Positions 1-14,776 of a stretch of 14,776 nt of DNA are shown here, piece by piece. Below the pieces are notes generated by a model. That model made no database searches, had not been told where the DNA came from, and was given only the letters and a program-made list of their open reading frames with translations. The DNA is from Candidatus Bipolaricaulia bacterium. Its GTDB lineage: Bacteria > Bipolaricaulota > Bipolaricaulia > JBHIAT01. The position numbers and the translations under genes are program-made. Where the stretch lies: assembly GCA_046758705.1 (NCBI GenBank), contig JBHIAT010000085.1, forward strand, positions 1 through 14,776, given 5' to 3'. Within the stretch, counting starts at the first letter, position 1. Each line of letters begins with the position of its first letter.

Positions 1-1
1 A

Positions 2-1165
2 AAGCAAACGCAGAACCGTGAGAGAGATCTGGAGCTGATGTTCCGATTGCTCCAGAAAGGAAGCTCCGACGCCGAACGGCGGATCGTCGAGGCGAAGTTC
101 GAATTGGTACAAGCGGTCGCTGCGGAGCTTTCCGGCTTGAGCCAACCATCGGATGAACTGATCCAGGCCGGCTATATCAGCCTATTAAACGCCATCCACA
201 GTTTCAATCCCTCTCAGAAAGGTGGATTCGGCTGGTTCGACAACTATGCGACCCTCCTGATCCAGGAGGGGATCCGGCGCCACCTTCAGGAAAAACCGTC
301 CGATGAGTTCCCTGAGTGGATACAGATGCTCAGTGGGAAGGTGAGGATCGCCATCGCTGCCTTCTTCGAGGAACATAGTCGATTCCCGTCGGTCGCCGAG
401 CTCTCCAATGAGCTCAACATCAAGCAAGCAGGGATTCTGGAGATCCTCAAAGCCGGGGGGGCAGAGGAGATCGACGCCGATAAGATCCGGAGCAAACGAC
501 CTAGGACGTTCAAACTCTCTATCGAGGACATGATCCGGATCGCAAGAGCCATCGAGAAGGTCTCTAAGGTTCAGCGGACGGTGGTTCAGAGGCTGTTGCG
601 CATCGGCAAATCCGAGGCGACCGAAGCGGATGGATCTCAGGTGAACGAGCCGGACGAAGGCAGTCATGACGAACGCAAGTATCTGGAGCAGTTGGAGCGG
701 GAGCTCGATCACCTGCGCAACTTCATCACCGCGATCGATACCATAAATACCGATACCGATACCGATACCGATATCCATGAGGAAGCCAGGATTCAAAAAG
801 AAGATGTAACCAACCGGAAGTTGTTTTTCAATTTGTATCAGGAGTACCAGGAGCAGGGGCAGAAATTGACCTCTCTCCAGTTCAAACAGTGGTCCAGAAA
901 ACGGATCGAGGCGCTTAAAGGGCGACAGATTCAATGGTGGGGACAAGTCTTAGATGTGCATGAAATGGACGGGGGAATCCGAATCGACGTTCAGGCGTTA
1001 CCCACCGTCCACAACGTACATCTCTATCTCAAACTACCGATGGACCGGCTTGAGGAGGTGCTGGAGCAGGAAAGAGGTGCACTCACCATCTTTAGGGGTG
1101 TGATCAGCCAGATCCAGAGTGAACCATTTGCTATGACGTTGACCGATGTGGAATTTGCTGAATAA
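2..1165 (+). CDS. Sigma-70 family (SigB/SigF/FliA-like) protein, probably 5'-partial; regions 2 and 3 present, region-4 HTH apparently absent, C-terminal coiled coil plus OB-fold-like domain
   Basis: Frame is open from nt 2 (KQTQNRERDLELM...), so the ATG at 38 may not be the true start. Region 2-like DELIQAGYISLLNAIHSFNP...FDNYATLLIQEGIRRHLQE; region 3-like PEWIQ...RFPSVAELSNELNI; start of region 4 IEDMIRIARAIEKVSKVQRTVV, followed by unrelated sequence. Confidence 0.75.
   Translation, partial: KQTQNRERDLELMFRLLQKGSSDAERRIVEAKFELVQAVAAELSGLSQPSDELIQAGYISLLNAIHSFNPSQKGGFGWFDNYATLLIQEGIRRHLQEKPSDEFPEWIQMLSGKVRIAIAAFFEEHSRFPSVAELSNELNIKQAGILEILKAGGAEEIDADKIRSKRPRTFKLSIEDMIRIARAIEKVSKVQRTVVQRLLRIGKSEATEADGSQVNEPDEGSHDERKYLEQLERELDHLRNFITAIDTINTDTDTDTDIHEEARIQKEDVTNRKLFFNLYQEYQEQGQKLTSLQFKQWSRKRIEALKGRQIQWWGQVLDVHEMDGGIRIDVQALPTVHNVHLYLKLPMDRLEEVLEQERGALTIFRGVISQIQSEPFAMTLTDVEFAE
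747..773 (+). repeat. Hexanucleotide tandem repeat (ATACCG)x4.5 encoding TDTDTDTD
   Basis: ATACCG ATACCG ATACCG ATACCG ATA read directly from the sequence; in frame, in the linker before the C-terminal domain. Confidence 0.95.
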
Positions 1166-1193
1166 CGTATCTCTTACCGTAAAAGCACATTAA

Positions 1194-2687
<1,494 letters not shown>

Positions 2688-2763
2688 TGAGCATGTCGTG
2701 ATGGGTGAATGCTGAAGCGTATCCATTGCAGCCCATCGGGTTATCGGATATATTAAGGTCGCT

Positions 2764-4497
2764 ATGGCGAATCGGATCTTTAAGGCAGTTATGTCCTTAG
2801 GGGTGCTGTTGGCAATCGTCGCTGCCCTGTCTGTCAGCTTCGGACGGTTGGTCTGGGAACGTGAGTACAAGGACGTCGGAATCACCATCGAATACAAGGA
2901 CGTGGTAAAACTCTCCTCCAAACACGGCTATCCCGATGGGGAATTACTGTTCCAGTTGCGCGAGCGGAAGGTCGATTCGCTCACCCTCTATCCGGTGGAG
3001 CTGGAGGAATTTGCAGCACTGCTCACGCCGGTGGAGCTGGAGATGGAGGAGGAGGAAAAGGGAGGACCGCTCGTCGGCAGGTTCTTCGAGAGCGATGTGA
3101 CGAAGTTGCGTGCGATGGGGTTTGGGATCGTCCTCCGGCCGATCAATTTCCAACCTCCCACGAGCGATCCCGTGTTCTTCGAAAGATACCTGGAAAGACT
3201 GGGCGACCTCGAGCCACGGCAGATCATCTTCGGGGGCCGGGAGGTGCTGGGGTACCCGGATTACCTCGAGGAGACCACCGCTTTTCTCAAGGAACATAGC
3301 AGCCTGGTGGGCCACATAGAGTTCGGGAATCAGTTAGGAATGGGAACTCTGGTCGATGGGGTAACCGATCAATTCGTCCGGGTCCATAGCATCACCCGAG
3401 ACGAGATGAAGTCGATCACGATCGATGATGCGCTGGCCCGCTGGGAACGGGCGGTAGAGGAAAGGAACATCCGCAGGCTATACGTACGGTTCTTCGAGGA
3501 TAAGACGGTGGAGGAAAACCTCAGCTACGTGGAGAGTCTGGTGAATCGTCTGAATGATAGCGGTTTCCAGGTAGGTAGGGTGAGCCTGGCTGAGCCATTC
3601 GAGGTGCAAGATCGGTGGTTGCTCGTCATGATGATCGGTGCGGTCAGCTTGGGCATGTTGAACGTGAATCGGGTCTGGAAGCCGCAGTTCCTTATCAACC
3701 TGCTGCTGTGGGTGATAGGGATAGCCATCGTCATCACTGGGTTGAGGTTGGACACGCTGCTCACCCGCCAGGCGGTTGCCCTGGCGCTTGCCTTGCTGAT
3801 CCCGGTCTCCGCGTTCCTCTATCTGCGTCCCGTTCTTATAGGCGAGCGGGAGACGATCGGAAGCGCACTGGGGGGTGGGATGTTGGTCTTGGTCTACTCG
3901 TCTCTCATCGTAGTCTTGGGAGGGATCGGGATTGGCGCGCTGCTGAGCGGGGAGGAGTTCTTCCTGAAGCTCAGGGAGTTTCGCGGCGTCAAACTGTCGT
4001 TGGTTGCCCCGTTGGTGTTGGTGTTCATCACCTATTTCATCGTGGTCGGCAGGGACCGGTTCAAAGCGTTTGTGACCAGGCAGATCAGGATGGGCGATCT
4101 GATCCTGATCGGGCTGGGGGGGGCGGCCCTGGTGATGGTGGTGTTGCGCAGCGGAAATTTCTCGATCGTTCCGGTTCCCGAGTTGGAGGTGTTCTCCAGG
4201 CGTTTTCTGGAGGAATCCCTGTTCGCCAGGCCCCGGTTCAAGGAGTTCCTCTTCGGCCATCCGTTGCTGTTCCTGTGGGGAGGGGTGGGCTTCAGAAGCC
4301 TGCGCGACTATGATGTCATCGTGTTACTCCTCGGTATGATCGGCCAAGTCTCGATTATCAACACCTTCGCTCACCTGCACACTCCTCTGATCGTCTCACT
4401 GTCCAGGACGGCCATCGGGGTAGCGCTGGGAATCATCGTTGGGGTGATCCTGGTGGTGATCTTCAAGGAGGGTGAACGGTTTTGGACGAGGAGCTGA
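2764..4497 (+). CDS. DUF5693-like polytopic membrane protein (csaB-associated)
   Basis: N-terminal TM helix, an extracytoplasmic domain (RAVEERNIR), then multiple TM helices with FRGVKL, RPRFKEFLFGHP and SIINTFAHLHTP motifs; overlaps csaB, matching the usual pairing of this family. Confidence 0.8.
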   Translation: MANRIFKAVMSLGVLLAIVAALSVSFGRLVWEREYKDVGITIEYKDVVKLSSKHGYPDGELLFQLRERKVDSLTLYPVELEEFAALLTPVELEMEEEEKGGPLVGRFFESDVTKLRAMGFGIVLRPINFQPPTSDPVFFERYLERLGDLEPRQIIFGGREVLGYPDYLEETTAFLKEHSSLVGHIEFGNQLGMGTLVDGVTDQFVRVHSITRDEMKSITIDDALARWERAVEERNIRRLYVRFFEDKTVEENLSYVESLVNRLNDSGFQVGRVSLAEPFEVQDRWLLVMMIGAVSLGMLNVNRVWKPQFLINLLLWVIGIAIVITGLRLDTLLTRQAVALALALLIPVSAFLYLRPVLIGERETIGSALGGGMLVLVYSSLIVVLGGIGIGALLSGEEFFLKLREFRGVKLSLVAPLVLVFITYFIVVGRDRFKAFVTRQIRMGDLILIGLGGAALVMVVLRSGNFSIVPVPELEVFSRRFLEESLFARPRFKEFLFGHPLLFLWGGVGFRSLRDYDVIVLLLGMIGQVSIINTFAHLHTPLIVSLSRTAIGVALGIIVGVILVVIFKEGERFWTRS

Positions 4498-5666
4498 GTC
4501 AAGGGCAAGGCGAAGGGCAAGATCAAGAGCAGGAGCGCAACGCGGCGCAGGGCAAATTTCTGATCGTAGGGTACTATGGGTTCGGCAACTTCGGCGACGA
4601 GGCGATCCTGGCCAGCTTGGTGAGCGGCCTGTGCCTCCGATTCCCCGATGTCGAGCTGGTCATCCTGTCCAAAGACCCACAGGAGACGAGCGAACGGCAC
4701 GGAGTGCGGGCGATCAACCGCTGGAACCTGTTTTCCATCGTTCGAGAGTTGCGCAAGACCACGCTGTTCATCAGCGGGGGTGGCGGACTGCTGCAAGACA
4801 GCACCAGCCGCCGATCCCTCTGGTATTATCTGTCTTTGATCCTGCTCGCCCGCTTGTCCAGGAAACCGATCTTCTTGATCGGCCAGGGGATCGGTCCGAT
4901 CCGAAGCGAGCTGAACCGTCGGTTGACGGCGATCGTGCTGCGCTGGGTCGATTTCATCTCGGTGCGGGATGAAACCAGCCTATGGCTGTTAAGAGACTGG
5001 GGTGTGGACGAGGATCGACTGCTGCTCGGCGAGGACCTCGCTCTGTGCCTGGAGAACCGGGACGATGCGAAGGGATTAAGCCTGGGGTCCGCGGATGATA
5101 ACCGGAATCTGTTGGGTGTCGCGTTGAAGGAGGGCGCCCGGAATCAGGAACGGTTCACCCGTTCGATGGCCGAGGCTCTGGACGAGGCGAGCCGCCGTTG
5201 GGGGCTTCAGGTGGTGTTCTTCTCTACCTTTCCCGATCAGGATCTTAAGATCGCCGAGGAGATCCGTGACAGGATGCAGGAGCGAGCGTTCATCGTCAAC
5301 TCGGCACACCTATCGGTCCGGGAGATGATCAACCTGATCGATGAGGCCCGGATCGTTATCGGAACCCGGCTCCATGTGCTGGAGTTCGCCGCCCTCTCGG
5401 GAATCCCGTTCATCGCCCTCAGCTACGATCCGAAGGTGGATGCGTTCGTCGAACGCCTGGAACAGGCCTCGGATCTACAGATATCGCTCTGGAGCGTCGA
5501 TAGGATCGAAAGCGGGCAGATCATCCAGGAGCTCGGCAGGTTGATCGAACACGAACAGAATTACCGGGAGCGGTTAAAACACGGGGCTGAGTATTTGGGC
5601 CGATCGGTTCACAAAAGCTTCGAGACGCTATGCGAACGGATCTGGGAACGGATTCAAGTAGACTGA
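4482..5666 (+). CDS. csaB: Polysaccharide pyruvyl transferase CsaB
   Basis: GYYGFGNFGDEAIL, ISGGGGLLQDSTSRRSLWYY, GQGIGP, ISVRD, GTRLH and LSYDPKV motifs. TTG start preceded by AAGGAGGG. Confidence 0.9.
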   Translation: MDEELSQGQGEGQDQEQERNAAQGKFLIVGYYGFGNFGDEAILASLVSGLCLRFPDVELVILSKDPQETSERHGVRAINRWNLFSIVRELRKTTLFISGGGGLLQDSTSRRSLWYYLSLILLARLSRKPIFLIGQGIGPIRSELNRRLTAIVLRWVDFISVRDETSLWLLRDWGVDEDRLLLGEDLALCLENRDDAKGLSLGSADDNRNLLGVALKEGARNQERFTRSMAEALDEASRRWGLQVVFFSTFPDQDLKIAEEIRDRMQERAFIVNSAHLSVREMINLIDEARIVIGTRLHVLEFAALSGIPFIALSYDPKVDAFVERLEQASDLQISLWSVDRIESGQIIQELGRLIEHEQNYRERLKHGAEYLGRSVHKSFETLCERIWERIQVD

Positions 5667-5676
5667 ACCTGAACCG

Positions 5677-5877
5677 ATGAAATGGCTGTTGATTGCCGTT
5701 CTGCTTGTCTTGGTGATCGTCTTGGGTCTCCCGGTCCTGAGCGGTGAAGTCGAGTGGTTAAAGAGCTTCGAACCTGAAGAGCTCGGATCGTTCTTCTTTG
5801 GAGTGCTCGACTACTGGATAACGGTCGTCAAGACGATATTGAGGCTTCAGCAGGATCAGGAGCCTCAAGTGATCTAA
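5677..5877 (+). CDS. Small hypothetical membrane/secreted protein (66 aa)
   Basis: ATG start, hydrophobic N-terminus (MKWLLIAVLLVLVIVLGLPVL) and an amphipathic second helix; fills the gap between csaB and rsmH almost exactly. Confidence 0.6.
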   Translation: MKWLLIAVLLVLVIVLGLPVLSGEVEWLKSFEPEELGSFFFGVLDYWITVVKTILRLQQDQEPQVI

Positions 5878-5908
5878 TTCTAGATTGGAGTCGGAATCCC
5901 CTAACGGC

Positions 5909-6850
5909 ATGGAACATCAACCGGTCCTGCTCGACCGAGCGATCGAGCTTCTCGATGTCAAATCGGATGGGATCTATGTGGACGCCACCGTCGGAGGCGG
6001 CGGCCATGCACTAGAGATCGCCAGGCGGCTCTCCGTTTCCGGGAGGCTCATCGGGATCGATCTGGATCGCGACGCACTAGAGATCGCTGCAACCCAACTC
6101 AAACCGTTCTCCGAATGGGTGACCCTCATCCACGGGAACTTCGCTGAACTTGACAGGTTGCTTGATCGGGTCGGCGTAGACCGGGTCGATGGGATCTTGT
6201 TCGATCTCGGCCTGTCCTCGATGCAGCTCGATACCCCTGAGCGAGGGTTCAGCTTCCGATTCGATGCGAAGCTCGACATGCGCATGGACCCAAATGGCAA
6301 CCCGCTGACGGCCGAGGAAGTGATCAATACTGATTCCCAAGCTGAATTGGAACGGGTGTTTCGGGAGTCCGGTGAAACGCGCTGGGGAAAACGGATTGCG
6401 GAGGCGATCGTCAAAACGAGAAAAACGGAGAGAATCGAGACGACCGGCCAGCTGGTTGAGACGGTGAAGAGTGCGATCCCAACGGGATATCAGCGCAATA
6501 TGAACATCCATCCGGCTACCAAAATCTTCCAAGCACTTCGGATTATCGTCAATAATGAGTTGACAAACCTGCGACGAGGGATTATAATAGGCTCCCATTG
6601 TCTCAAGGTGGGAGGGGTCATAGTGGTCATCGCCTATCATTCCCTTGAGGACCGGATTGTCAAAGGGATCTTCGTCGAGCAGGCGAGCGATTGCATCTGT
6701 CCACCGGAGTGGCCGGTCTGTCGTTGTGATAAGGAGCGAGAGGGAGAGATTCTCACCAAACGACCGATTCAGCCCGACGCTGAGCAGGTGGCCTGTAACC
6801 CCCGATCGAGAAGTGCGAGGCTCAGAGCGATCCGGAAGCTGATCGGTTGA
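5909..6850 (+). CDS. rsmH: 16S rRNA m4C1402 methyltransferase RsmH (MraW)
   Basis: HQPVLL, VDATVGGGGHA, DLGLSSMQLD..ERGFSF, LDMRMD, HPATKIFQALRIIVNNEL, YHSLEDRIVK, NPRSRSARLR. ATG 5909 fits family length; TTG 5885 is an alternative start. Confidence 0.97.
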   Translation: MEHQPVLLDRAIELLDVKSDGIYVDATVGGGGHALEIARRLSVSGRLIGIDLDRDALEIAATQLKPFSEWVTLIHGNFAELDRLLDRVGVDRVDGILFDLGLSSMQLDTPERGFSFRFDAKLDMRMDPNGNPLTAEEVINTDSQAELERVFRESGETRWGKRIAEAIVKTRKTERIETTGQLVETVKSAIPTGYQRNMNIHPATKIFQALRIIVNNELTNLRRGIIIGSHCLKVGGVIVVIAYHSLEDRIVKGIFVEQASDCICPPEWPVCRCDKEREGEILTKRPIQPDAEQVACNPRSRSARLRAIRKLIG

Positions 6851-6884
6851 GCAAAGCCAACGTTTAGAACAGGAGGTAGGTGGG

Positions 6885-7355
6885 GTGGCGCTTAGAAGGG
6901 CCAAGGGGCTGAGTCTCACTATCACCCAGCAGACTTACACAACTGGGGTCTCAATCGCTACGGAGCGAGAGCAACATGAGGCGTTTCTCACCCCAGCGAG
7001 AACAGTTGGCATCATTCTGCTCATCCTCGTGACCCTGGGGTGCCTCATCTACCTGTGGCAGTCGTGGGAGCATCGACAGCTGGTGCAACGGGTGCGGATC
7101 GGTCAGGAAAGTTTGACCAGACTGCAAGCGGAGCACCAGCAGTTGGAATTCGAACTCGCCCAGTACCACTCCCTGGATCGGATCGAGCGGATCGCTCGGG
7201 AGAGGTTGGGAATGGCAGAGCCGGAGACAGTGGTGTACGTCCCGCGCCCCCTGTTTCCGCTCCTGGCCTCCAAGGGGACGCAAGCGGAACCTGCTCGTTC
7301 ATCTGAGGTCGAGGCCGAGGCTGAGGTCGCAATCCAGCCTGGGTCGGAACGCTGA
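6885..7355 (+). CDS. ftsL: Cell division protein FtsL / septum formation initiator family
   Basis: Single TM segment, then a coiled coil and SLDRIERIARERLGM motif; canonical position between rsmH and ftsI; AGGAGG RBS 8 nt before GTG; TGATG overlap with ftsI. Confidence 0.85.
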   Translation: MALRRAKGLSLTITQQTYTTGVSIATEREQHEAFLTPARTVGIILLILVTLGCLIYLWQSWEHRQLVQRVRIGQESLTRLQAEHQQLEFELAQYHSLDRIERIARERLGMAEPETVVYVPRPLFPLLASKGTQAEPARSSEVEAEAEVAIQPGSER

Positions 7356-9085
7356 TGAGATGGAAGGTGCTATCGATCGCCACCCTGGTGATACTCGCTT
7401 CCGGGGTCGTCTTGGGAAGACTCGTCTATCTCCAGGTGTTCCAACATGAATTGTGGAGCAGTCGGGCGGAGGCGATCCAAACCCAGGTCATCCGGGTTCC
7501 TGCGAATCGGGGGCGACTGTTCGACCGGAACGGCATACTCCTGGCCGACAACCTGAGAACCATCGATATCGCCGTCGATCCGTCCTACCTGACCGAGCCT
7601 GAACTGCTCAAACCGATTCTGAGCCAGGAACTCGGACTCGATGCTGCCTACCTGAACGCCCAGCTGTCCCGGGAGGGCCGGTTCGCATGGATTCGTCGTC
7701 AGGTGCCCCTGGCGATGGCAGACCGAATCCGACGTAGGGCGGAGATCAGCGGGATCCGGGGACTCATCTTCCTCGACTCGACAAAACGGATCTACCCCCA
7801 AGGGCAATTGGCAGCCAACGTGATCGGGTTCGCCGGGGTCGACAATCAGGGGCTGGAAGGGATCGAATTCGGATTGGACGAGTTGTTGGACGGCGAGGAC
7901 CGGGTCGCCCGGTTGGTGAGCTACACGAGTGAGATCGCCGAGGTCATCGAAACGGGCCGGCCGGGCCACGATGTCTACCTGACCCTGGACAGCCAGATCC
8001 AGCATATCGCCGAGAGCGAAGTGGATCGGGGAGTGAACGAATTTCTGGCCCGGCACGGGTTCGCCGTGGTGATGAACGTCAATACCGGTGAGATCCTGGC
8101 GATGGCTCAGGACGCCCGCCCCGATCCGAACGACTTTCAGAGCACCTCCCCCGATCAGTGGCGTAACCGCGCGATCTCCTACATGTTCGAACCCGGTTCT
8201 TCGTTAAAGATATTCGCCGGGCTGGCCGCGCTTGAGAACGGGGCCATCGAACTCGATGAGCAGGTCAGCGGGGACGAGCCGGTGGTGATCGCCGGACACG
8301 CCTTCCACAACGCTGAAAACATCAACTACGGGATGGTCACCCTGAGAGATATCATCCAGTTGTCGATCAACACCGGGATGATCCGGGTGGCTCAACAGCT
8401 CGGCCCGGAACCCCTGTATGCGTTCTTGAAGCAGCTGAGATTTGGGGAGCGGACCGGTCTGAACGGTCTGAGCGGGGAGGCTGCCGGAATGCTGCGTCCC
8501 GTCGAAAATTGGTCAGAGCTCGCCATCGGTGCGGTCCCCATTGGTCAGTCGATCGCGGTCACCGGCCTTCAGTTGATCACCCGAGCGGCGGCGATCGCTA
8601 AGGATGGTCTGCTTCTCAAACCGCAACTCGTCCTCCGGGTCGAGGATCGTGAAGGGAACCTGGTCCAGCGCGCCCGACCCGAGGTGCTCGAACGGGTGAT
8701 CTCCGAGGAAAATGCCCGGATCATGAAGCAGATCATGCGTCAGGCGGTGATGGACGGCACCGGGCGCTGGGCCGAGGTGGAGGGCTTCGAAGTGGCGGGC
8801 AAGACCGGCACCGCCCAGAAGGCGAGCCCTGAAGGCGGCTACGCCGAAGGGAAGTTCACGTCGCTGTTCGTCGGTTTTTTCCCGGCGTCACATCCGCAGC
8901 TGGCCATACTGGTTGTCTTGGATGAGGTTCAGGTGAAACCGTTCTGGGGCGGCCAGACGGCCGGGGTGATCTTCCAGCGCATGGCAAGACGAATCGTCGA
9001 ACGTAAGCGGATTCCACCGGTCGTGGTCGCAGACGTTGAGCCGGTGCAACCAGAACCACTCCTCTTCGCCCCGCTCCTACCCTGA
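7355..9085 (+). CDS. ftsI: Class B penicillin-binding protein, FtsI/PBP3-like transpeptidase
   Basis: N-terminal TM, RGRLFDRNG, RIYPQG, GLEGIE, LTLDSQIQ; catalytic motifs SxxK (EPGSSLK), SxN (SIN) and KTG (GKTGTAQK); no PASTA domain visible. Confidence 0.92.
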   Translation: MRWKVLSIATLVILASGVVLGRLVYLQVFQHELWSSRAEAIQTQVIRVPANRGRLFDRNGILLADNLRTIDIAVDPSYLTEPELLKPILSQELGLDAAYLNAQLSREGRFAWIRRQVPLAMADRIRRRAEISGIRGLIFLDSTKRIYPQGQLAANVIGFAGVDNQGLEGIEFGLDELLDGEDRVARLVSYTSEIAEVIETGRPGHDVYLTLDSQIQHIAESEVDRGVNEFLARHGFAVVMNVNTGEILAMAQDARPDPNDFQSTSPDQWRNRAISYMFEPGSSLKIFAGLAALENGAIELDEQVSGDEPVVIAGHAFHNAENINYGMVTLRDIIQLSINTGMIRVAQQLGPEPLYAFLKQLRFGERTGLNGLSGEAAGMLRPVENWSELAIGAVPIGQSIAVTGLQLITRAAAIAKDGLLLKPQLVLRVEDREGNLVQRARPEVLERVISEENARIMKQIMRQAVMDGTGRWAEVEGFEVAGKTGTAQKASPEGGYAEGKFTSLFVGFFPASHPQLAILVVLDEVQVKPFWGGQTAGVIFQRMARRIVERKRIPPVVVADVEPVQPEPLLFAPLLP

Positions 9086-9099
9086 GCAGCGCTCCGAAA

Positions 9100-9539
9100 A
9101 TGGTCTTATTCGTTGACGACGGTGGTGTGCTGAACGATAACACCCGGCGGTCACTGCAGTGGCAGCGGTTGCTGGGAGAGTTTTTTCCACCGATCCTGGG
9201 TGGCACACCCGAATCCTGGGCCGAGGCGAACCCTCAAGCGAATTAGAGGGCTATCTGGAAGGAATGGGCGTGCGAGATTGCTTCGGGCGCCTCTACGGAC
9301 CCGACCTGGTGGATACGCTGAAACGGGGTCCCGAGTACTATGTGCGAATCTTTACCGACGTAAGGGTATCTCCGGCCGATGCCCTGGTGATTGACGATCA
9401 ACCTCTCTTCATCAATTGGGCCGCCCAAGCCGGCGCGAAAACGGTGCTGGTTGGCCCGGCGGCCGACGAGGAGTGCAAGCCGGGCCTGATCATCGCCAGC
9501 CTGGCTGAACTGCCCCAGGCTCTGGAAACTATCGGGTGA
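9100..9539 (+). pseudogene. HAD-family hydrolase pseudogene (internal deletion with frameshift)
   Basis: An unlisted ORF at 9100-9246 (MVLFVDDGGVLNDN...WAEAN) holds HAD motif I. A different frame from ~9225 holds GEPSSELEGYL...LKRGPEYY...ALVIDD...AGAKTVLV (motifs III and IV). Most of the cap domain and motif II are missing. Confidence 0.8.
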
Positions 9540-9579
9540 AGGCTCATGAAGGAACGAGGAACTTAAGGAGGTGAAGCGT

Positions 9580-10470
9580 ATGGCAATGACAGCGCAGGAT
9601 AGAGTCATGACGGCTCTGCAACATAAGGAGCCCGATCGTGTTCCTTTTGACTTGGATGGAACAACGGTGTCAGGGATTCATCGCATCGCGTATCGCAACC
9701 TGCTGTCCCATATCGGCATGGACGAAGAAAGCGAGATTTCCGTTTATGATATCGTCACCCACAGAAATCAGGTGGAAGCGCTGTCCCAAAAGACCGGCTG
9801 TGCATTGACCCTGGTGGGAAGCGGTTCGGGAATCTTCGAATATGCATGCTGGATAAGAGGATTTAAAGAATTCTATTTAGATTTAGCGAGGGATCCGTCT
9901 TTAGCTACAAGTCTGTTGGACAAAATCACCGATTATAAGATAAGGATTTGGGAACTTCTGCTGGATGAGCTCGGTCATCTGGCTCAAATAGCCCAGGAGG
10001 CAGATGATCTCGCCGGTCAAGTCGATTTATTAATATCTCCCGACATGTACCGCCAGCTCATCAAACCACGACATAAAAGAGTTTTCGAGTTTATCAAGAA
10101 GAACGCTCCAAAACCGATGTACGTGTTTCTCCATTCTGATGGAGCGATTTACGACTTGATCCCTGACCTGATTGAGGCAGGCGTCCAGATCTTGAATCCC
10201 GTGCAAGTCAGTGCAGCGAGAATGGATACCCGGCGACTCAAAAAGGAATTCGGAGATGTGCTGTGCTTTTGGGGAGGCGGGGTCGATACCCAGAACGTGT
10301 TACCCCGAGGCACCCCGGATGAAGTCAGGGATGAAGTGAGAAGGCACCTCGATGATCTGGCCCCTGGAGGGGGTTACATCTTCGGCGCGATCCATAATAT
10401 TCAGCCGGACGTGCCCCCGGAGAACATCATCGCCATGTGGGAAACTTTACAGGAGTATGGCAGGTATTAA
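9580..10470 (+). CDS. Uroporphyrinogen decarboxylase-like (UroD/MtaA/CmuA family) protein, probably internally deleted
   Basis: MTAQDRVMTALQHKEPDRVPFD, ADDLAGQ, ISPDMYRQLIKP, FLHSDGAI, NPVQVSA, FWGGGVDTQ, GGGYIFGAIHNIQPDVPPENI. AAGGAGGTG RBS favours ATG 9580. Only 296 aa. Confidence 0.85.
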   Translation: MAMTAQDRVMTALQHKEPDRVPFDLDGTTVSGIHRIAYRNLLSHIGMDEESEISVYDIVTHRNQVEALSQKTGCALTLVGSGSGIFEYACWIRGFKEFYLDLARDPSLATSLLDKITDYKIRIWELLLDELGHLAQIAQEADDLAGQVDLLISPDMYRQLIKPRHKRVFEFIKKNAPKPMYVFLHSDGAIYDLIPDLIEAGVQILNPVQVSAARMDTRRLKKEFGDVLCFWGGGVDTQNVLPRGTPDEVRDEVRRHLDDLAPGGGYIFGAIHNIQPDVPPENIIAMWETLQEYGRY

Positions 10471-10473
10471 GTT

Positions 10474-12030
10474 CTAGAATTCGAGTGGTTCACCCTCTTG
10501 GGGAAGACGTACTTCGCAAAGGTCCCCCAGCTCTTTGGAATAGATTTCCGGATACTCGGTATGGATGGGGATTAACGTCTTAGGCTCGATCGCCCGGGCG
10601 AATTGGAGCAGCTCGGGGCCGCTCGCGTGCCCGCTGGCATGGATCTGGATCGGCTGGTACCCCTGCTCAGGATTGATGCCAAAGTGCTTCAGCCAATTGT
10701 GCAGCCGCTCGTCGGAAAGCTCCATCTCTTCGTTGAACGGCTCGGTGCTGGCCCGGATATAGCTCGAACCGGCCGGCGGCTTAATGTCCAGTAGGTTATT
10801 GAAACGCCAGTAGTCGAGCTGGAACACGTAGCGCTCCGGCTCACGGTTTAGATCCAGTGCGGTGACTCCGCGCTCTAAATGCGGGGTCTCAGGTTTCTTC
10901 CCTTTGAGCCAATGGGCCTGATATCCTGCCTTGTACTTGTCGTAGACATAGTCAGCAGGGCTATAGAGCAGGCTACGGCTCCGCTCCAGATAGACGTAAA
11001 CCCCGGGCTCGGATTCCAAATCGTAGCCGAGCTGATGTAGGAGATAGGCAAGTCGGGGGAAAATGACCAGCTCGCGACCTACCGCCTCTGCCGCCTCTTT
11101 CATCGTTTCGTAGCGCTCCACGTCCTTCCAACGGAAGCCGATCATCGCTAGACCTTGCGTCTGGTGGATGGCTCGGACAAGCTCTTCAAGGACGCGTGTC
11201 TCATCATCGTGTTCCTGGCTGGTGATGCGTGTCCCCTCAAGCAACAGCACATCCGGTTGGAGTCCTCCCAAGCTCTCTAACGGATCAAAATGCCAGCGGC
11301 CGTGAAAGCGTATGTCACCGGAATAGACGACCGTCTGGCCGTCAGCCCGGATCACAAAGGCGACCGAACCGGGAACCGAGTGACCGACGGCTACGGGTTG
11401 GACGGTGATCGCCGAGTTCTCTTGTAGTGTGAACGGCTGACCGGGCTCAAACAGGTGGATGTGGCGGGGCTCCTCGTCCCCGGCGGCGATCTTAGGCGCA
11501 CCGGGGAAGAAGCCGCCCTTATTGGGTTGCAACACTCGTCGGCTGATGCGCAGCACGTCCCGTTCACAACCGCTATAGTTGCCGACAGAGACAGCCGCCT
11601 CAAGCAGGGTATGCGTCTGAGGCGAGCAGTAGATCGGAAGGTGACCGAGAAAGCCGATCAGGCCAAAGTGGTCATCATGACCGTGGGTCAGCAACAGGGC
11701 ATCGACCGGTGGTTTGCCACGGTCTCGCTGGTAATCTTCGGCGCATTGGACCTCGATCTGCCAGAGCGGGGCACTGCGACCGAGCAGATCGGGGTCTCCC
11801 AAAGGGGTCAATGCATCTTCGCGATAGAGACCGTCGACACGGGGCAAGATGCCTAACCGGAGGTAGTCACAGAGTTGTGAATTGGTGCGCGGGGCCAGAT
11901 ACTCTTCGTAGAAGCGTTCCCTGCATTTGAAGGATACACCAAAATCGAGCAGGACTCTTCCGGAGGGGAACTCGACCAGGATCTTGTTGCCACCGATCTC
12001 ATTGACCCCACCATAGCAGGTAATCTTCAT
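10474..12030 (-). CDS. Metallo-beta-lactamase fold hydrolase, beta-CASP / RNase J-like nuclease
   Basis: GGVNEIGGN, LLDFG, THGHDDH (HxHxDH), GHSVPGS, YSGDIR, HASGHAS and IPIHTE motifs. Confidence 0.85.
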   Translation of the reverse strand: MKITCYGGVNEIGGNKILVEFPSGRVLLDFGVSFKCRERFYEEYLAPRTNSQLCDYLRLGILPRVDGLYREDALTPLGDPDLLGRSAPLWQIEVQCAEDYQRDRGKPPVDALLLTHGHDDHFGLIGFLGHLPIYCSPQTHTLLEAAVSVGNYSGCERDVLRISRRVLQPNKGGFFPGAPKIAAGDEEPRHIHLFEPGQPFTLQENSAITVQPVAVGHSVPGSVAFVIRADGQTVVYSGDIRFHGRWHFDPLESLGGLQPDVLLLEGTRITSQEHDDETRVLEELVRAIHQTQGLAMIGFRWKDVERYETMKEAAEAVGRELVIFPRLAYLLHQLGYDLESEPGVYVYLERSRSLLYSPADYVYDKYKAGYQAHWLKGKKPETPHLERGVTALDLNREPERYVFQLDYWRFNNLLDIKPPAGSSYIRASTEPFNEEMELSDERLHNWLKHFGINPEQGYQPIQIHASGHASGPELLQFARAIEPKTLIPIHTEYPEIYSKELGDLCEVRLPQEGEPLEF

Positions 12031-12213
12031 CTTGCTACATATACATTTGCATATTTAGTGCTCATCCGTCAAACAGCCAGTAGTAGAGCTTGGAGGTAAC
12101 AAGGTTATCAGGGGTTAACGTCGTTCTATAGCCATGGCCCTCGTCCATGAGCTTCCCAAGCCTGCCACTTTGACCGGAAGCGCCATAAAGAAGAACCGCC
12201 TCCGCCTTATTAT

Positions 12214-12531
12214 CGGTCAATACACCGGACTTCAGTCCGCGTGGACTTTCTCCTCTTTCCATGGTATAATGATCACAGATCTTTGACAACGTATGGGGTT
12301 GTTGCCGCAACCCTGAGCAACGTAAAACGTTGTGGGTATAGCCAGGTGCATTTTGCCAGCGTTTTGCTGTTCAGCGAAACAGAAGCTAACAGCCGCGAAG
12401 CCTGGCCTAAAGAAACTAAAACGTTGTGTGTGAACTGGCCGGGCGCGGCCAGCGTGGAGGCGTGAACCGCTGCGAGAGCAAGTTCCGCCTGTGAAACGAG
12501 AAGCCCCGTACTTTAGTGCGGGGAGCGTCAC
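12214..12531 (+). mobile_element. Non-autonomous IS200/IS605-family miniature element (no tnpA/tnpB)
   Basis: Left-end imperfect hairpin CACCGGAC-TTCA-GTCCG(C)GTG (12223-12243) preceded by AATA, with TTAT at 12210-12213. Right-end hairpin CCCCGTAC-TTTA-GTGCGGGG (12504-12523) preceded by GAAG and ending in TCAC (12528-12531). No terminal inverted repeats or target duplication, as expected for this family. The left boundary is inferred. Confidence 0.8.
12242..12270 (+). promoter_or_regulatory. Sigma-70 promoter with extended -10 inside the element left end
   Basis: TGGACT-17 nt-TATAAT, with TG at 12262-12263 giving TGnTATAAT. Confidence 0.75.
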
Positions 12532-12551
12532 GAGGGTTACCCCTCGGGAAC
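12277..12551 (+). ncRNA. Candidate TnpB-type omegaRNA/reRNA-like structured RNA plus ~20-nt flank-derived guide
   Basis: Successive stems: GGGTTG/CAACCC, CAACGT/ACGTTG, GCCAGG/CCTGGC enclosing GTTTTGCT/AGCGAAAC, CTGGCCG/CGGCCAG, AGGCG-GAAC-TGC[GAGA]GCA-GTTC-CGCCT, then the right-end hairpin and TCAC. Both ends are inferred. Confidence 0.6.
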
Positions 12552-12956
12552 CACGCCGAGCTGTTGCATCATGCCCAGGAAGTCGAACTCGCCCCAGCGT
12601 TCCACGGCCTTGCCGCCTTCGATGCGGATGATGTCGATCCCCGTCATCGCCACCTGCTTACCGGTCGCAGGAATGCCTTGAAACTCACCTTGGTGTGTGC
12701 CGCTCAATGTCAGGCGGGTCGTAACCTTGTCCCCTTCGGCAATCATGTCTTCAATCGTGAAGTGTAAGTCGGGGAAGGAGACGAGGATCTGTGCAAAGAT
12801 TTGTTTGACGCCCTCAAGGCCGGGTGCCTGTCCGGGATTGGGATTGTGATCGACAAAGCCAGCGCCGATAAACTCGTCTAATACGTCCACATTCCTCTGG
12901 CTCAGAACCTCCTCGTAGAAACGGCGGGTCTTGGCCTTGTTTTCTTCTGTTGACAT
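12537..12956 (-). CDS. Ester cyclase / SnoaL-like (NTF2-fold) protein
   Basis: MSTEENKA...FPDLHFTIEDMIAEGDKV...GTHQGEFQGIPATGKQV...GKAVERW...MMQQLG; AAAGGAGG RBS. Confidence 0.92.
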   Translation of the reverse strand: MSTEENKAKTRRFYEEVLSQRNVDVLDEFIGAGFVDHNPNPGQAPGLEGVKQIFAQILVSFPDLHFTIEDMIAEGDKVTTRLTLSGTHQGEFQGIPATGKQVAMTGIDIIRIEGGKAVERWGEFDFLGMMQQLGVVPEG

Positions 12957-12990
12957 GGGATGGCCTCCTTTGACATTTTGTCTCAGGATA

Positions 12991-13008
12991 TACCTAGAGT
13001 TACCTAGA
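12991..13008 (-). promoter_or_regulatory. Direct-repeat operator candidate upstream of the ester cyclase gene
   Basis: TACCTAGA-GT-TACCTAGA, two perfect 8-mers with a 10-bp period. On the - strand they fill the spacer of a possible TTGCGT-18 nt-TATCCT promoter. Confidence 0.5.
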
Positions 13009-13060
13009 ACGCAACTTTAAGAAAAGTGCTGCTTTCATGGCCTGCAGCGGATCAGGACAT

Positions 13061-13801
13061 TCACTCCCATTGAAAAAAGCGGAGTGAGAGAATCGCCGAT
13101 CCCAAAAGAATGACGATCACGATGAACATCTCGGTGGTGTTCCAACCGAAACCGAGCCAGGCGTCCTGCAGCAGGTAGACGAGGTGCGTCAGCGGTAGTA
13201 TGTCCCCGATCTGTTGCAATATATCCCCAAGGACCTCTGGGGGTGGCCCGGTGCCGGAGAGGAGCATCATCACGAAGAACAGGATCAGGCCAGCCATTTG
13301 GGCTGCCCGTGCCGTGGGAAGCAAGGCGCCCAGTAGAAAACCCAAGGCGGCAAAGCTCAGCGTGCCCAGCACGAAACCTGCTACCACCCCGGTGGTAAAG
13401 TGGGGCGAGTTCAGATCATAGATGAGCCGGGTCGCCAGGATCATCAGCGCACCGCTCACCGTTGCGACCACGAATGAGATGATGATCTGTGACCCGAACA
13501 CACTCCAAATCGGGATCGAAGACGCCCGAAACCGGCGAAGTACGCCCGCCTCTCGGTACCCGGACAAATGGACCGGGATGCCGACCAGGCCGACGGATGC
13601 GATGACGAGACCGATATACGCTGGCACGTAGAAGTCTATGGGGCCGACCCCTCGATAGATTTCGGGATCAGGGTTGTTGCCGAACACCTCGGCGAGCACA
13701 AATAGCAAGATGATCGGAAAGAACAAAGAGAGGACCATGGTAATCGGCTCTCGGATGAAGAGCTTGATCTCGACCCAGGTCAACTTGGTTAACGTGTGCA
13801 T
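13061..13801 (-). CDS. ABC-2 type exporter permease (DrrB-like)
   Basis: About six TM segments; E.KLF.REP, YREAGVLRRFRAS and LPLTHLV motifs; stop/start overlap with the upstream ATPase gene at 13801. Confidence 0.92.
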   Translation of the reverse strand: MHTLTKLTWVEIKLFIREPITMVLSLFFPIILLFVLAEVFGNNPDPEIYRGVGPIDFYVPAYIGLVIASVGLVGIPVHLSGYREAGVLRRFRASSIPIWSVFGSQIIISFVVATVSGALMILATRLIYDLNSPHFTTGVVAGFVLGTLSFAALGFLLGALLPTARAAQMAGLILFFVMMLLSGTGPPPEVLGDILQQIGDILPLTHLVYLLQDAWLGFGWNTTEMFIVIVILLGSAILSLRFFQWE

Positions 13802-14760
13802 TACGTCTTCGCCTCTACCTCCACCTCATTCTCGATTTCACCATCGGTGAGTGTCAGGAACACGTCCTCGAGCGTCGGTTGCTCCACACGGAAATCGGGC
13901 GGTGTGATCCCGTGTTCGACCAGCGCTGCCGCGACTAGGACGAGCACCGAACTGCTACATTCAATCTCAACCCGCGGTCCTCGTCTCGTAACGCGGCGAA
14001 CGTGCTCCATCTCCTCAAGCCACGACAGGTCAGCGTGGTCGGTACTGAAGATGACTCGTGTGTGGTCTGCGTGGTTGGCGATCAGCCCCTGAGGTGTATT
14101 GAGGGCAACGACCCGGCCTTGTTTCACGATGGCCAGCCGATCACAGAGGTGCTCTGCCTCGTCCATGAAGTGGGTGACCAGCACCACGGTCGTACCTCGA
14201 TTACGGATGGCTTCGATCAGCTGCCAGGCGACTCGGCGGCCGGCCGGATCCAGACCCGTGGTCATCTCGTCGAGGAACACCACCTCAGGATCGTTGACGA
14301 GCGCGAGAGCGACCAATAGCCGCTGGCGCTGACCTCCGGACAAGCTTGAGAACGAGGTGTTGCGCTTGTCGGCCAGGCCCCACTGCTCCATGAGGACTTG
14401 CCAGTCTGAGCCTCCGGGAATCACCGAAGAGAATAAGTCAAGTGCCTCCCAGACTCTGATTCGCTCGGGCAGGGCCGTCTCTTGGAGTTGAGAGCCGATC
14501 CGCCGCCGCAACGCTTGCGCCTGTTCCTGTGGATCGAGCCCCAACACGCTGATTTGGCCCCCGTCCGGTTGACGCAGACCCTGCAGACACTCCACCGTCG
14601 TGGTCTTGCCCGCGCCGTTGGGGCCGAGCAAACCAAAGATCTCCCCTTCGCCTACCTCGAACGAGATATCGTCCACGGCAACCGTCGATCCGTAGGTCTT
14701 TCGCAGATGTTCGACCTCGATAACGACATTCATCGGAGATTTTCCATAGAGTTCAGTCAA
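13801..14760 (-). CDS. ABC exporter ATP-binding protein (DrrA-like)
   Basis: Walker A GPNGAGKTT, signature LSGGQRQR, Walker B VVFLDE, H-loop VTH, C-terminal PTLEDVFL. TTG start with AAGGAGG 9 nt upstream. Confidence 0.95.
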   Translation of the reverse strand: MTELYGKSPMNVVIEVEHLRKTYGSTVAVDDISFEVGEGEIFGLLGPNGAGKTTTVECLQGLRQPDGGQISVLGLDPQEQAQALRRRIGSQLQETALPERIRVWEALDLFSSVIPGGSDWQVLMEQWGLADKRNTSFSSLSGGQRQRLLVALALVNDPEVVFLDEMTTGLDPAGRRVAWQLIEAIRNRGTTVVLVTHFMDEAEHLCDRLAIVKQGRVVALNTPQGLIANHADHTRVIFSTDHADLSWLEEMEHVRRVTRRGPRVEIECSSSVLVLVAAALVEHGITPPDFRVEQPTLEDVFLTLTDGEIENEVEVEAKT

Positions 14761-14776
14761 GGGGACCGTCCTCCTT

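Follow-up and report, generated by a model that had tools for sequence, protein, structure and literature searches.

The window analysed here comprises positions 1 to 14,776 (14,776 nt) of contig JBHIAT010000085.1 of a Candidatus Bipolaricaulia bacterium (assembly GCA_046758705.1), whose genome is referred to as the source genome or G000. C-numbers denote contigs, and L-numbers denote loci fetched from the genomes compared. On its plus strand, at 12207..12531, the window carries a whole gene-less element of 325 bp of the IS200/IS605 type (PATE-like), within which an initial annotation had flagged 12277-12452 as an extended RNA scaffold or a separate noncoding RNA. Taken as a whole, the reading we propose as probable is that this interval forms the 5' two-thirds of a stand-alone omegaRNA gene in a non-autonomous element of this kind. 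Its first part is a conserved 5' hairpin motif of 61 nt with the leader UCUUUG (12280..12340, + strand), which was recovered by a covariance model in eight genomes of two classes.

A gene-less element with an omegaRNA core

By its sequence, the element is a non-autonomous IS200/IS605 derivative, PATE-like and with an omegaRNA tail. It is short and without genes, carries subterminal hairpins without terminal inverted repeats, occurs in multiple copies and has a source of Y1 transposase in trans, with six Y1_Tnp (Y1 TnpA) matches in the source genome alongside 23 matches to the TnpB zinc-ribbon family. A search of this genome identified six full copies (C85, C63, C183, C65, C279 and C42) that are 99.7–100% identical over 325–329 bp, with flanks unrelated between them and identity bounded sharply at 12207 and 12531. 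Diverged copies were observed on C120 (88.9%), C45 (88.1%), C106 (87.1%) and C244 (75%), and partial copies on C159, C144 and C80. From left to right, the element comprises a left-end hairpin, a sigma70-like promoter, the flagged region, approximately 110 nt homologous to tnpB 3' ends, and the right end. The three local open reading frames (ORFs) have no Pfam match, and blastx of 12150-12560 against all source-genome ORFs of at least 60 amino acids (aa) returned only the element's own copies and no TnpB. Similarity to TnpB at the protein level, which had been suggested as a check on the flagged interval, was therefore not found across it by this search.

The left end contains a putative subterminal hairpin, read from the sequence (CGGAC-TTCA-GTCCG, 12226..12239, + strand), followed by a sigma70-like promoter with a TG extension (TGGACT-17-TATAAT, 12242..12270, + strand) and a predicted start near 12277. 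The promoter assumed upstream of the flagged interval was thus supported, with a score of 10/12 and conservation at the equal position in diverged copies of the source genome and in the mini-elements of other genomes. The mini-elements share a homologous left end with full-length elements, and their promoter is homologous to the tnpB promoter of the latter. For subfamily C120, this homology is with the full-length element on C185, and the left-end hairpin of the window's subfamily differs. On C204 (2690-2730), a hairpin (CCATGGACTTTAGTCCGTGG) was identified 3' of a Y1 tnpA gene. This hairpin is closer to the left-end hairpin of the window element (12226-12239) than the element's own right-end hairpin is, and because of this resemblance the C204 Y1 tnpA is a candidate transposase for the element.

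The omegaRNA core was assigned to 12421..12531 (+ strand) from homology to tnpB 3' ends and from pair counts. For this within-genome anatomy, six distinct copies of the source genome were aligned and a consensus was derived with RNAalifold. About 80 nt of the core (12452-12531) show homology to the tnpB genes of C274 and C185 at their 3' ends. There, the frames stop at a TAG within the terminal hairpin's loop, and the right end ...GAGTGTCAC follows a few bases later. The terminal hairpin of the window core (12504-12523) holds the former tnpB stop TAG in its loop, as in 21 resident tnpB ends of the source genome, and the right end ...GAGCGTCAC finishes at 12531. Two features mark this part as a putative omegaRNA, namely a scaffold that abuts the right end toward the flank and a tnpB 3'-end homology that includes the terminal hairpin. 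A long-range helix is predicted between 12421-12425 and 12524-12528 (96.7% paired, one double change), and the core further comprises middle stems and a hairpin at 12435-12452, which has two double changes. The latter hairpin (CTGGCCG-GGCG-CGGCCAG) had been listed among the extra stems. It is real and covarying, but it aligns, linked through copy C244, with the hairpin CCAGTGGGGCACCACTGG within the coding ends of the C274 and C185 tnpB genes, and because of this homology it belongs to the core of about 110 nt. An extended scaffold therefore stands in part: the position fits, with dense and conserved plus-strand structure between promoter and core, but the last hairpin is not an extra one. The flagged interval is not one unit; it consists of the motif (12280-12340), an insert (12341-12413) and then the core hairpin at 12435-12452.

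The insert contains a branched hairpin of 66 nt (12341..12406, + strand) that is found in the source genome only, and other hairpins take its place in the mini-elements of other genomes. The closing stem GCCAGG/CCTGGC described earlier was recovered as P4 (12341-12347 with 12400-12406; 97.6% paired, one double change). Inside it lie a short stem (12360-12362 with 12395-12397), P5 (GCUGUU/AACAGC, 12366-12371 with 12388-12393) and an inner stem of P5 (12373-12375 with 12385-12387). The hairpin GTTTTGCT-GTTC-AGCGAAAC previously drawn here was not upheld, as the same bases covary instead as P5, GCUGUU with AACAGC. Together, P5 and its inner stem show double changes in three of nine pairs, with P5 passing from GCUGUU/AACAGC to GCGGUU/AACCGC and to GUUGUU/AACAAC. 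A closing helix P1 (12280-12285 with 12408-12413), which would unite motif and insert as one domain, is 97.2% paired; it is treated as a prediction only, because none of its pairs changed on both sides.

The conserved 5' hairpin motif

The motif folds into two plus-strand helices, helix A (ACAACGU with ACGUUGU, 12286-12292 with 12327-12333) and helix B (GUUGC with GCAAC, 12301-12305 with 12317-12321). In an unfitted MAFFT alignment of 19 copies from four genomes, helix A is 97.7% paired with two pairs changed on both sides, and helix B is 98.9% paired with three of its five pairs so changed. Their joint covariation is 0.281 vs 0.171 and was reached by 0/500 shuffles, with slid controls of at most 0.119. 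All stems listed in the initial annotation exist in the sequence where they had been placed. In the same alignment, however, the first two of them gave a joint covariation of 0.137 vs 0.127, which 75/500 shuffles equalled; GGGTTG/CAACCC is 76.3% paired, and CAACGT-AAA-ACGTTG is 96.2% paired with one pair changed on both sides. Helices A and B replace these two stems because their covariation is far stronger. In a larger alignment of 39 copies from eight genomes, fitted to the covariance model, 97.0% of the cells pair and 11 of the 12 pairs, in 121 cells, changed on both sides. Covariation in this alignment is 0.781 vs 0.250 ± 0.020 (0/500 shuffles as high, slid controls at most 0.169). The G-U pairs on the plus strand agree with the strand read from the promoter.

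Between subfamilies of the source genome, the motif is 86–98% identical, compared with 45–84% for the middle of the core, and its conservation mostly exceeds that of the core. Nearly invariant unpaired stretches were observed across the copies (UCUUUG(A), UAUGrGGUU, CAA..CC, GUAAAA and RRGU), those of the window's own motif being UAUGrGGUU, the loop CAA..CC, GUAAA and GGGUA. This invariance holds in both AT-rich (23–31% GC) and GC-rich (about 60% GC) versions of the motif. The ACGUUGU strand can pair with either the 5' strand or the middle strand, and the motif may have an alternative fold through it. A stem of four pairs, GGGG/CCCU, which could have formed a pseudoknot with helix B, was rejected at only 68.4% pairing.

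Folding energies were compared with dinucleotide shuffles over the flagged interval of 176 nt, a check proposed with the original claim. The plus strand reached -66.5 kcal/mol against -54.2 ± 4.1 (z -3.02), with 1/200 shuffles as good, and the minus strand was also better than its shuffles (z -2.70). As for known families, no Rfam family reached its gathering score over the whole window, and at E ≤ 10 the region 11900-12700 gave only a 20-nt HgcC hairpin with 12.4 bits against a threshold of 50. ARAGORN found no tRNA.

A covariance model of the 61-nt motif, built on helices A and B (R2), was used for the distribution search, together with a model of the whole module (R1). At E ≤ 0.001, R2 matched 3 of the 151 genomes of the source genome's class (G000, G050 and G007) and 4 of the 87 genomes of the class of G184 (G184, G185, G219 and G249). 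At E ≤ 10, it gave 12 matches in G000, 4 in G050, 22 in G184 and 13 in G185. R1 recovered copies in 2 of the 151 genomes of the class, with 12 in G000 and 4 in G050, and the likeness of the G050 copies to the module is limited to the first 61 nt or so. Two exact-pattern scans of metagenome contigs gave 0 matches each, and a scan of genome contigs with a 20-nt pattern gave one match, a truncated copy in G184. In viral contigs, a 17-nt pattern returned 20 matches, which is about our rough chance estimate, and 0/20 fit R1; blastn against plasmids and phages found no match. A weak nhmmer match to the motif profile was observed on the minus strand of C152 in the source genome (565-614, E 0.076, profile positions 2-49), which may be one more decayed copy.

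About 50 motif matches were read in their genomic context, and each lies in a short element without genes or in what is left of one after truncation. Most commonly, a left-end hairpin and a sigma70-like promoter are followed, after 3–30 nt, by the motif, then by at least one variable hairpin and finally by a terminal hairpin and a right end, such as ..GTCAC, ..GTCAA, ..ATCAC, ..GTTGAC and others. Predicted transcripts of these mini-elements range from about 142 to 400 nt. Among the remnants, L054 breaks off behind the motif, the promoter is missing from C144 and L115, the left-end hairpin is missing from L118, and a contig end truncates a few others. Within tnpB frames R2 gave no match, and its match on contig C104 of G185 belongs to a mini-element of its own, some 450 nt downstream from where the tnpB stops. 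In G050, four motif-bearing mini-elements (L024, L026, L028 and L030) have tails of the C67 type.

Overall, the motif is joined to at least six types of tail. The partial copy on C159 is a mosaic, with a module 98% identical over its first 66 columns and a core of another tnpB type (C33/C14) at 45–55% identity. On C144 (4469-4621), the module has no promoter and passes, at the word GAAGCC common to both, into a terminal hairpin that is of a third tnpB type (C207). On C80 (8986-9349), the left end is joined directly to an omegaRNA core and the module is missing.

Origin of the motif and genomic setting

Sequence comparison suggests that the motif descends from the zinc-finger-to-RuvC-III coding stretch of one tnpB clade. 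The tails of the G050 mini-elements are homologous to the C67-type tnpB of the source genome. Just upstream of this homology and collinear with it, the G050 motif aligns with the C67 tnpB codons N-A-A-Y-N-L-V-R-V-A-S-V of RuvC-III, the aligned stretches of motif and gene being ATGCAGCGTAAAACGTTGT--GGGTAGCAAGCTGTG and ATGCGGCGTACAACCTTGTTCGGGTGGCGAG-TGTG. The score is 29 against 15.0 ± 2.1 for shuffles (0/1000 as high). A second G050 copy scored 23 (6/1000 shuffles as high), and the window's own motif aligns at the same place with a score of 17, which is not significant (213/1000). Additionally, in motif subtype L117/L118 both strands of helix A (an 8-mer and a 10-mer) are identical to a tnpB of G185, where they lie at codons C-P-N-C-G-N-I-S-D-S-D-V-N-A-A-K-N-I-A-Q-L-G (CPNCGNISDSDVNAAKNIAQLG). 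The strands are spaced 32 nt apart in the motif vs 26 nt in the gene, and this two-string pattern occurs nowhere else in approximately 0.97 Mb of fetched loci or in the source genome.

The flagged region had been described as unlike eroded tnpB coding DNA. This description does not hold for its first 61 nt, which align at the DNA level with the zinc-finger-to-RuvC-III stretch, and the motif is accordingly read as a native omegaRNA 5' stem instead of foreign cargo. A separate cargo RNA of an unrecognised class, the other suggestion made earlier, is for this reason unlikely. The shortest mini-elements (about 142–150 nt) carry the motif 8–12 nt before some 72 nt matching a tnpB tail that starts after N-A-S-L-N-I-L, and a native omegaRNA would be expected to have this spacing. 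The reading frame of the motif is broken, for example by a stop in GCG-TAA-AAC. The tail of the window element comes from a different tnpB type than the one resembling the motif, and a Smith-Waterman comparison of 12278-12420 with 21 tnpB 3' ends of the source genome reached at best 21, with a shuffle maximum of 29.

Pairing was also observed inside tnpB genes. In the tnpB on C104 of G185 (L087, reverse strand 1651-1698), the G-N-I and N-I-A codons form an 8-bp helix, GGCAAUAU with AUAUUGCU, that spans from the zinc finger to RuvC-III and whose strands are helix A of one mini-element subtype. By eye, in 4/5 C67-like tnpB genes the Ala/Asp codons before the RuvC-III Asn can pair with two Ala codons after it. 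The pairings are GCCG/CGGC and GCGGC/GCCGC, at the site of helix B (L175, L176, L182 and L184, in G000, G051 and G112), and an RNA hairpin maintained inside the coding sequence is possible. Derivation of the leader UCUUUG from tnpB K-S-L-S codons was suggestive in two genes only and was dropped.

Several other structures and relations were considered and rejected. A long-range pairing of 12286-12292 with 12423-12429 in the minimum free energy fold is lost in subfamilies C120, C45 and C106 and in other genomes. A tRNA-like cloverleaf was not found by ARAGORN; for a group I intron or IStron, examined by eye, the intron-like words are misordered, Rfam is silent and the element is antisense to its neighbours. 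An 11-nt GNRA receptor was considered by eye and dropped. The TTGACA of the leader is without a following -10 box and was rejected as a second promoter. Pairing of the leader UUGAC with the right-end GUCA was also discarded, both being nearly invariant and the G050 tails not fitting. With regard to an antisense target, the rest of the source genome contains 11-mers from the module, and complements of these, at about the level we expected by chance, and two 11-mer matches on C204 fall within an unrelated ORF.

Two minus-strand genes flank the 506-nt gap in which the element is located, one MBL-fold/RMMBL RNase-like (10474-12030) and the other SnoaL-like (12537-12956). The former encodes a product of 518 aa with an MBL fold and an RMMBL 'RNA specificity' domain, RNase J/beta-CASP-like; it is probably a chance neighbour, because five other copies of the element sit elsewhere. 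Judged from position, the first 16–20 nt or so of the downstream flank (12532..12551, + strand) could be read as a guide, antisense to the end of the SnoaL-like gene, and this flank is different in each of the six full copies. The first four bases of the element, TTAT (12207-12210), are present in 6/6 copies with varying bases before them, and they may be a target-adjacent motif instead of part of the element. The G185 mini-elements L105, L109 and L113 start directly after TTAC, and TTAT and TTAC are probably the target-adjacent motifs of the respective elements. About ten contigs of the source genome (C122, C251, C59, C58, C115, C220, C171, C155, C273 and C183) terminate within the repeat, after 26–61 nt and in most cases after about 53 nt. 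The assembly therefore appears to be broken at further copies, giving a true copy number above six. The repeat is a main cause of assembly breaks in this genome.

Proposed explanation, alternatives and known systems

In the proposed explanation, a single RNA would start near 12277 at the retained tnpB promoter and cross 12531 into the flank. Its order would be the 61-nt hairpin motif, the genome-specific branched hairpin, the tnpB-derived core of about 110 nt and the flank as guide. In full-length elements, the zinc-finger-to-RuvC-III stretch would double as the 5' stem of the omegaRNA. After loss of tnpB, the motif would have been retained by selection for RNA pairing and, together with the promoter, recombined onto several omegaRNA tails, and in the window element the 66-nt branched hairpin would have been added between motif and core. 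A resident TnpB (closest tails C274 and C185) would use the RNA to cut empty sites for homing, and a Y1 TnpA encoded elsewhere in the genome would move the element. The motif may cap or organise the 5' end of the guide RNA, through RNase protection, insulation of folding, or as a handle for TnpB loading or 5' processing, and with such a hairpin an element without genes could build up guide RNA to a level sufficient for borrowing TnpB. What exactly the hairpin does is the least secure part of this explanation. A role in making or keeping the RNA is favoured over one in catalysis because the motif is mostly the best conserved part, travels with the promoter and lies at a free distance from the core, and because the 5' region of the ISDra2 omegaRNA is dispensable.

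Extra 5' stems are also carried by the single-guide RNA and trans-activating CRISPR RNA of Cas12f. Here the likeness is conceptual only, consisting of a long guide RNA with stems beyond a minimal nuclease-binding core; unlike Cas12f, the window element has neither a repeat/anti-repeat duplex nor a CRISPR array. According to the main text of Meers et al. (PMC10055086), PATE-like minimal IS200/IS605 elements in Geobacillus stearothermophilus 'often encode' omegaRNAs. Like these, the window element is gene-less, has ends like those of resident tnpB elements and several copies per genome, and carries an omegaRNA for which TnpB and TnpA would be needed in trans (PMC10055086). It differs from the PATEs of that text in its predicted omegaRNA, which is long (a scaffold of about 254 nt) and chimeric, and in combining a 61-nt 5' hairpin shared by eight genomes and at least six tail types with a genome-specific insert (PMC10055086).

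For ISDra2, the main text of Nakagawa et al. (PMC10097598) describes a functional scaffold of 116 nt, to which the window core of about 110 nt is close, and a guide of 16 nt; the 5' region of the omegaRNA (-231 to -117) is disordered and dispensable for cleavage. In both cases, a terminal hairpin closes the scaffold at the right end, and the RNA extends 5' into present or former tnpB coding sequence; the long-range helix between the 3' tail and a segment about 105–110 nt upstream may have its counterpart in the window in the predicted 12421-12425/12524-12528. Unlike in ISDra2 as described there, the equivalent 5' part in the window is mostly the best conserved one and covaries. In the survey of Nety et al. 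(PMC10278001, main text), processed TnpB omegaRNA scaffolds measure 79–466 nt, so the length of the window scaffold alone is not unusual. These RNAs have a subterminal hairpin no more than 10 nt before the scaffold's 3' end, conserved stem-loops occur at the 5' end in one clade, and the RNA is trimmed on its 5' side by TnpB. The predicted window RNA resembles them in its subterminal hairpin near the 3' end, in a length within this range and, for one clade, in 5' stem-loops (PMC10278001). While the surveyed omegaRNAs are cut from tnpB mRNA, the window element has no upstream tnpB and its predicted promoter lies a few bases before the hairpin (PMC10278001). In the main texts consulted, a limited part of the literature, we found no description of gene-less elements that have a 5' hairpin in common across different tails and genomes; a comparable 5' stem may already be documented in the supplements of PMC10055086 and PMC10278001.

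Several points weigh against the proposed explanation. The promoter, the start site and co-transcription of the interval with the core are predictions. The 39-copy alignment, being fitted to the model, leans toward the structure, and the unfitted 19-copy result agrees with it in direction; single-stranded DNA of the top strand would give the same covariation. The tnpB origin rests on two pairwise observations. Only 1/35 motif-by-tnpB comparisons beats all 300 shuffles, an nhmmer motif profile found nothing at E 1000 in 11 tnpB zinc-finger/RuvC-III regions, a genome-wide nhmmer search gave nothing in tnpB at E ≤ 100, and R2 with filters off reached only 5.1 bits at the G185 tnpB site. Furthermore, the motif sits on tails of tnpB clades whose coding 5' regions do not resemble it, and, with the free spacing shown by the insert, this argues against a precise protein contact. 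As the ISDra2 5' region is dispensable, a 5' stem need not matter for TnpB activity. Finally, in G050 (85% complete) no TnpB zinc-ribbon match was found despite four mini-elements, and at this completeness the nuclease may be unassembled.

As a tentative alternative, promoter and 61-nt hairpin could form a portable 'front module' of guide RNAs, selected in its own right and recombined onto the tails of several TnpB clades. Such a module might work alike with all tails, as a loading or processing signal, as a shield of the 5' end or by binding a further host or transposon factor. If this were true, gene-less elements could out-compete full-length transposons for the nuclease.

We consider it doubtful that the hairpin motif, alone or together with the insert, serves as an independent RNA (regulatory, protein-binding, a switch or an unknown ribozyme) to which the omegaRNA tail is secondary. 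The unpaired stretches, nearly invariant across eight genomes, would suggest more than a stabilising stem; these bases overlap the most conserved TnpB codons (NAAxNI), however, and their invariance could be partly inherited. A motif mostly more conserved than the core, on at least six tail types, with two alternative partners for ACGUUGU as in a switch, and present in G050 mini-elements without a TnpB match, would also suit an independent function. Against this, the motif was found only by IS200/IS605 ends, always preceding a right-end tail or truncated to a remnant, it can be traced in sequence to the coding DNA of tnpB, and at E ≤ 10 Rfam gave only the sub-threshold HgcC hairpin.

That the structure acts in the single-stranded top strand of transposing DNA, aiding Y1 end synapsis or nuclease resistance, is unlikely. 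IS200/IS605 elements transpose as single strands, covariation and G-T wobbles would be equal for top-strand DNA and RNA, and the predicted P1 would pull the interior together. However, TnpA is known to require just subterminal hairpins and short guide sequences at the ends, and full-length elements of 1–1.5 kb move without the feature. Compaction alone does not need near-invariant unpaired bases, and the conserved promoter directly upstream, in elements from all eight genomes, points to RNA.

Quite unlikely is a functionless relic, that is, leftover tnpB coding DNA that seems structured as its copies are young. The six full copies of the source genome are identical, so selection is untried within the subfamily, and part of the sequence does derive from tnpB. 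Yet 39 diverged copies in eight genomes keep both helices through two-sided changes in 121 cells, pairing is kept although the reading frame is broken, and the motif is mostly more conserved than the remaining RNA. Lastly, a small protein is highly improbable: open frames exist on both strands (12241-12465, +, 74 aa; 12232-12531, -, 99 aa), but they have no Pfam match, blastx finds own copies only, relatives in other genomes contain stops and indels, and substitutions track base pairing and not codons.

The explanation we propose, a stand-alone omegaRNA gene with a retained 5' stem, involves no new RNA class and no new system. Gene-less elements carrying omegaRNAs are known; what differs here is a conserved, covarying 5' part that outlives its gene and occurs on different tails. 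If confirmed, it would indicate that the 5' region of omegaRNAs has a role in nature, in stability, processing or loading, to which cleavage assays that over-express the RNA are blind, and it would offer a compact natural 5' element for the design of TnpB guide RNAs. It would also be an example of a coding sequence turned into a purely RNA-level element.

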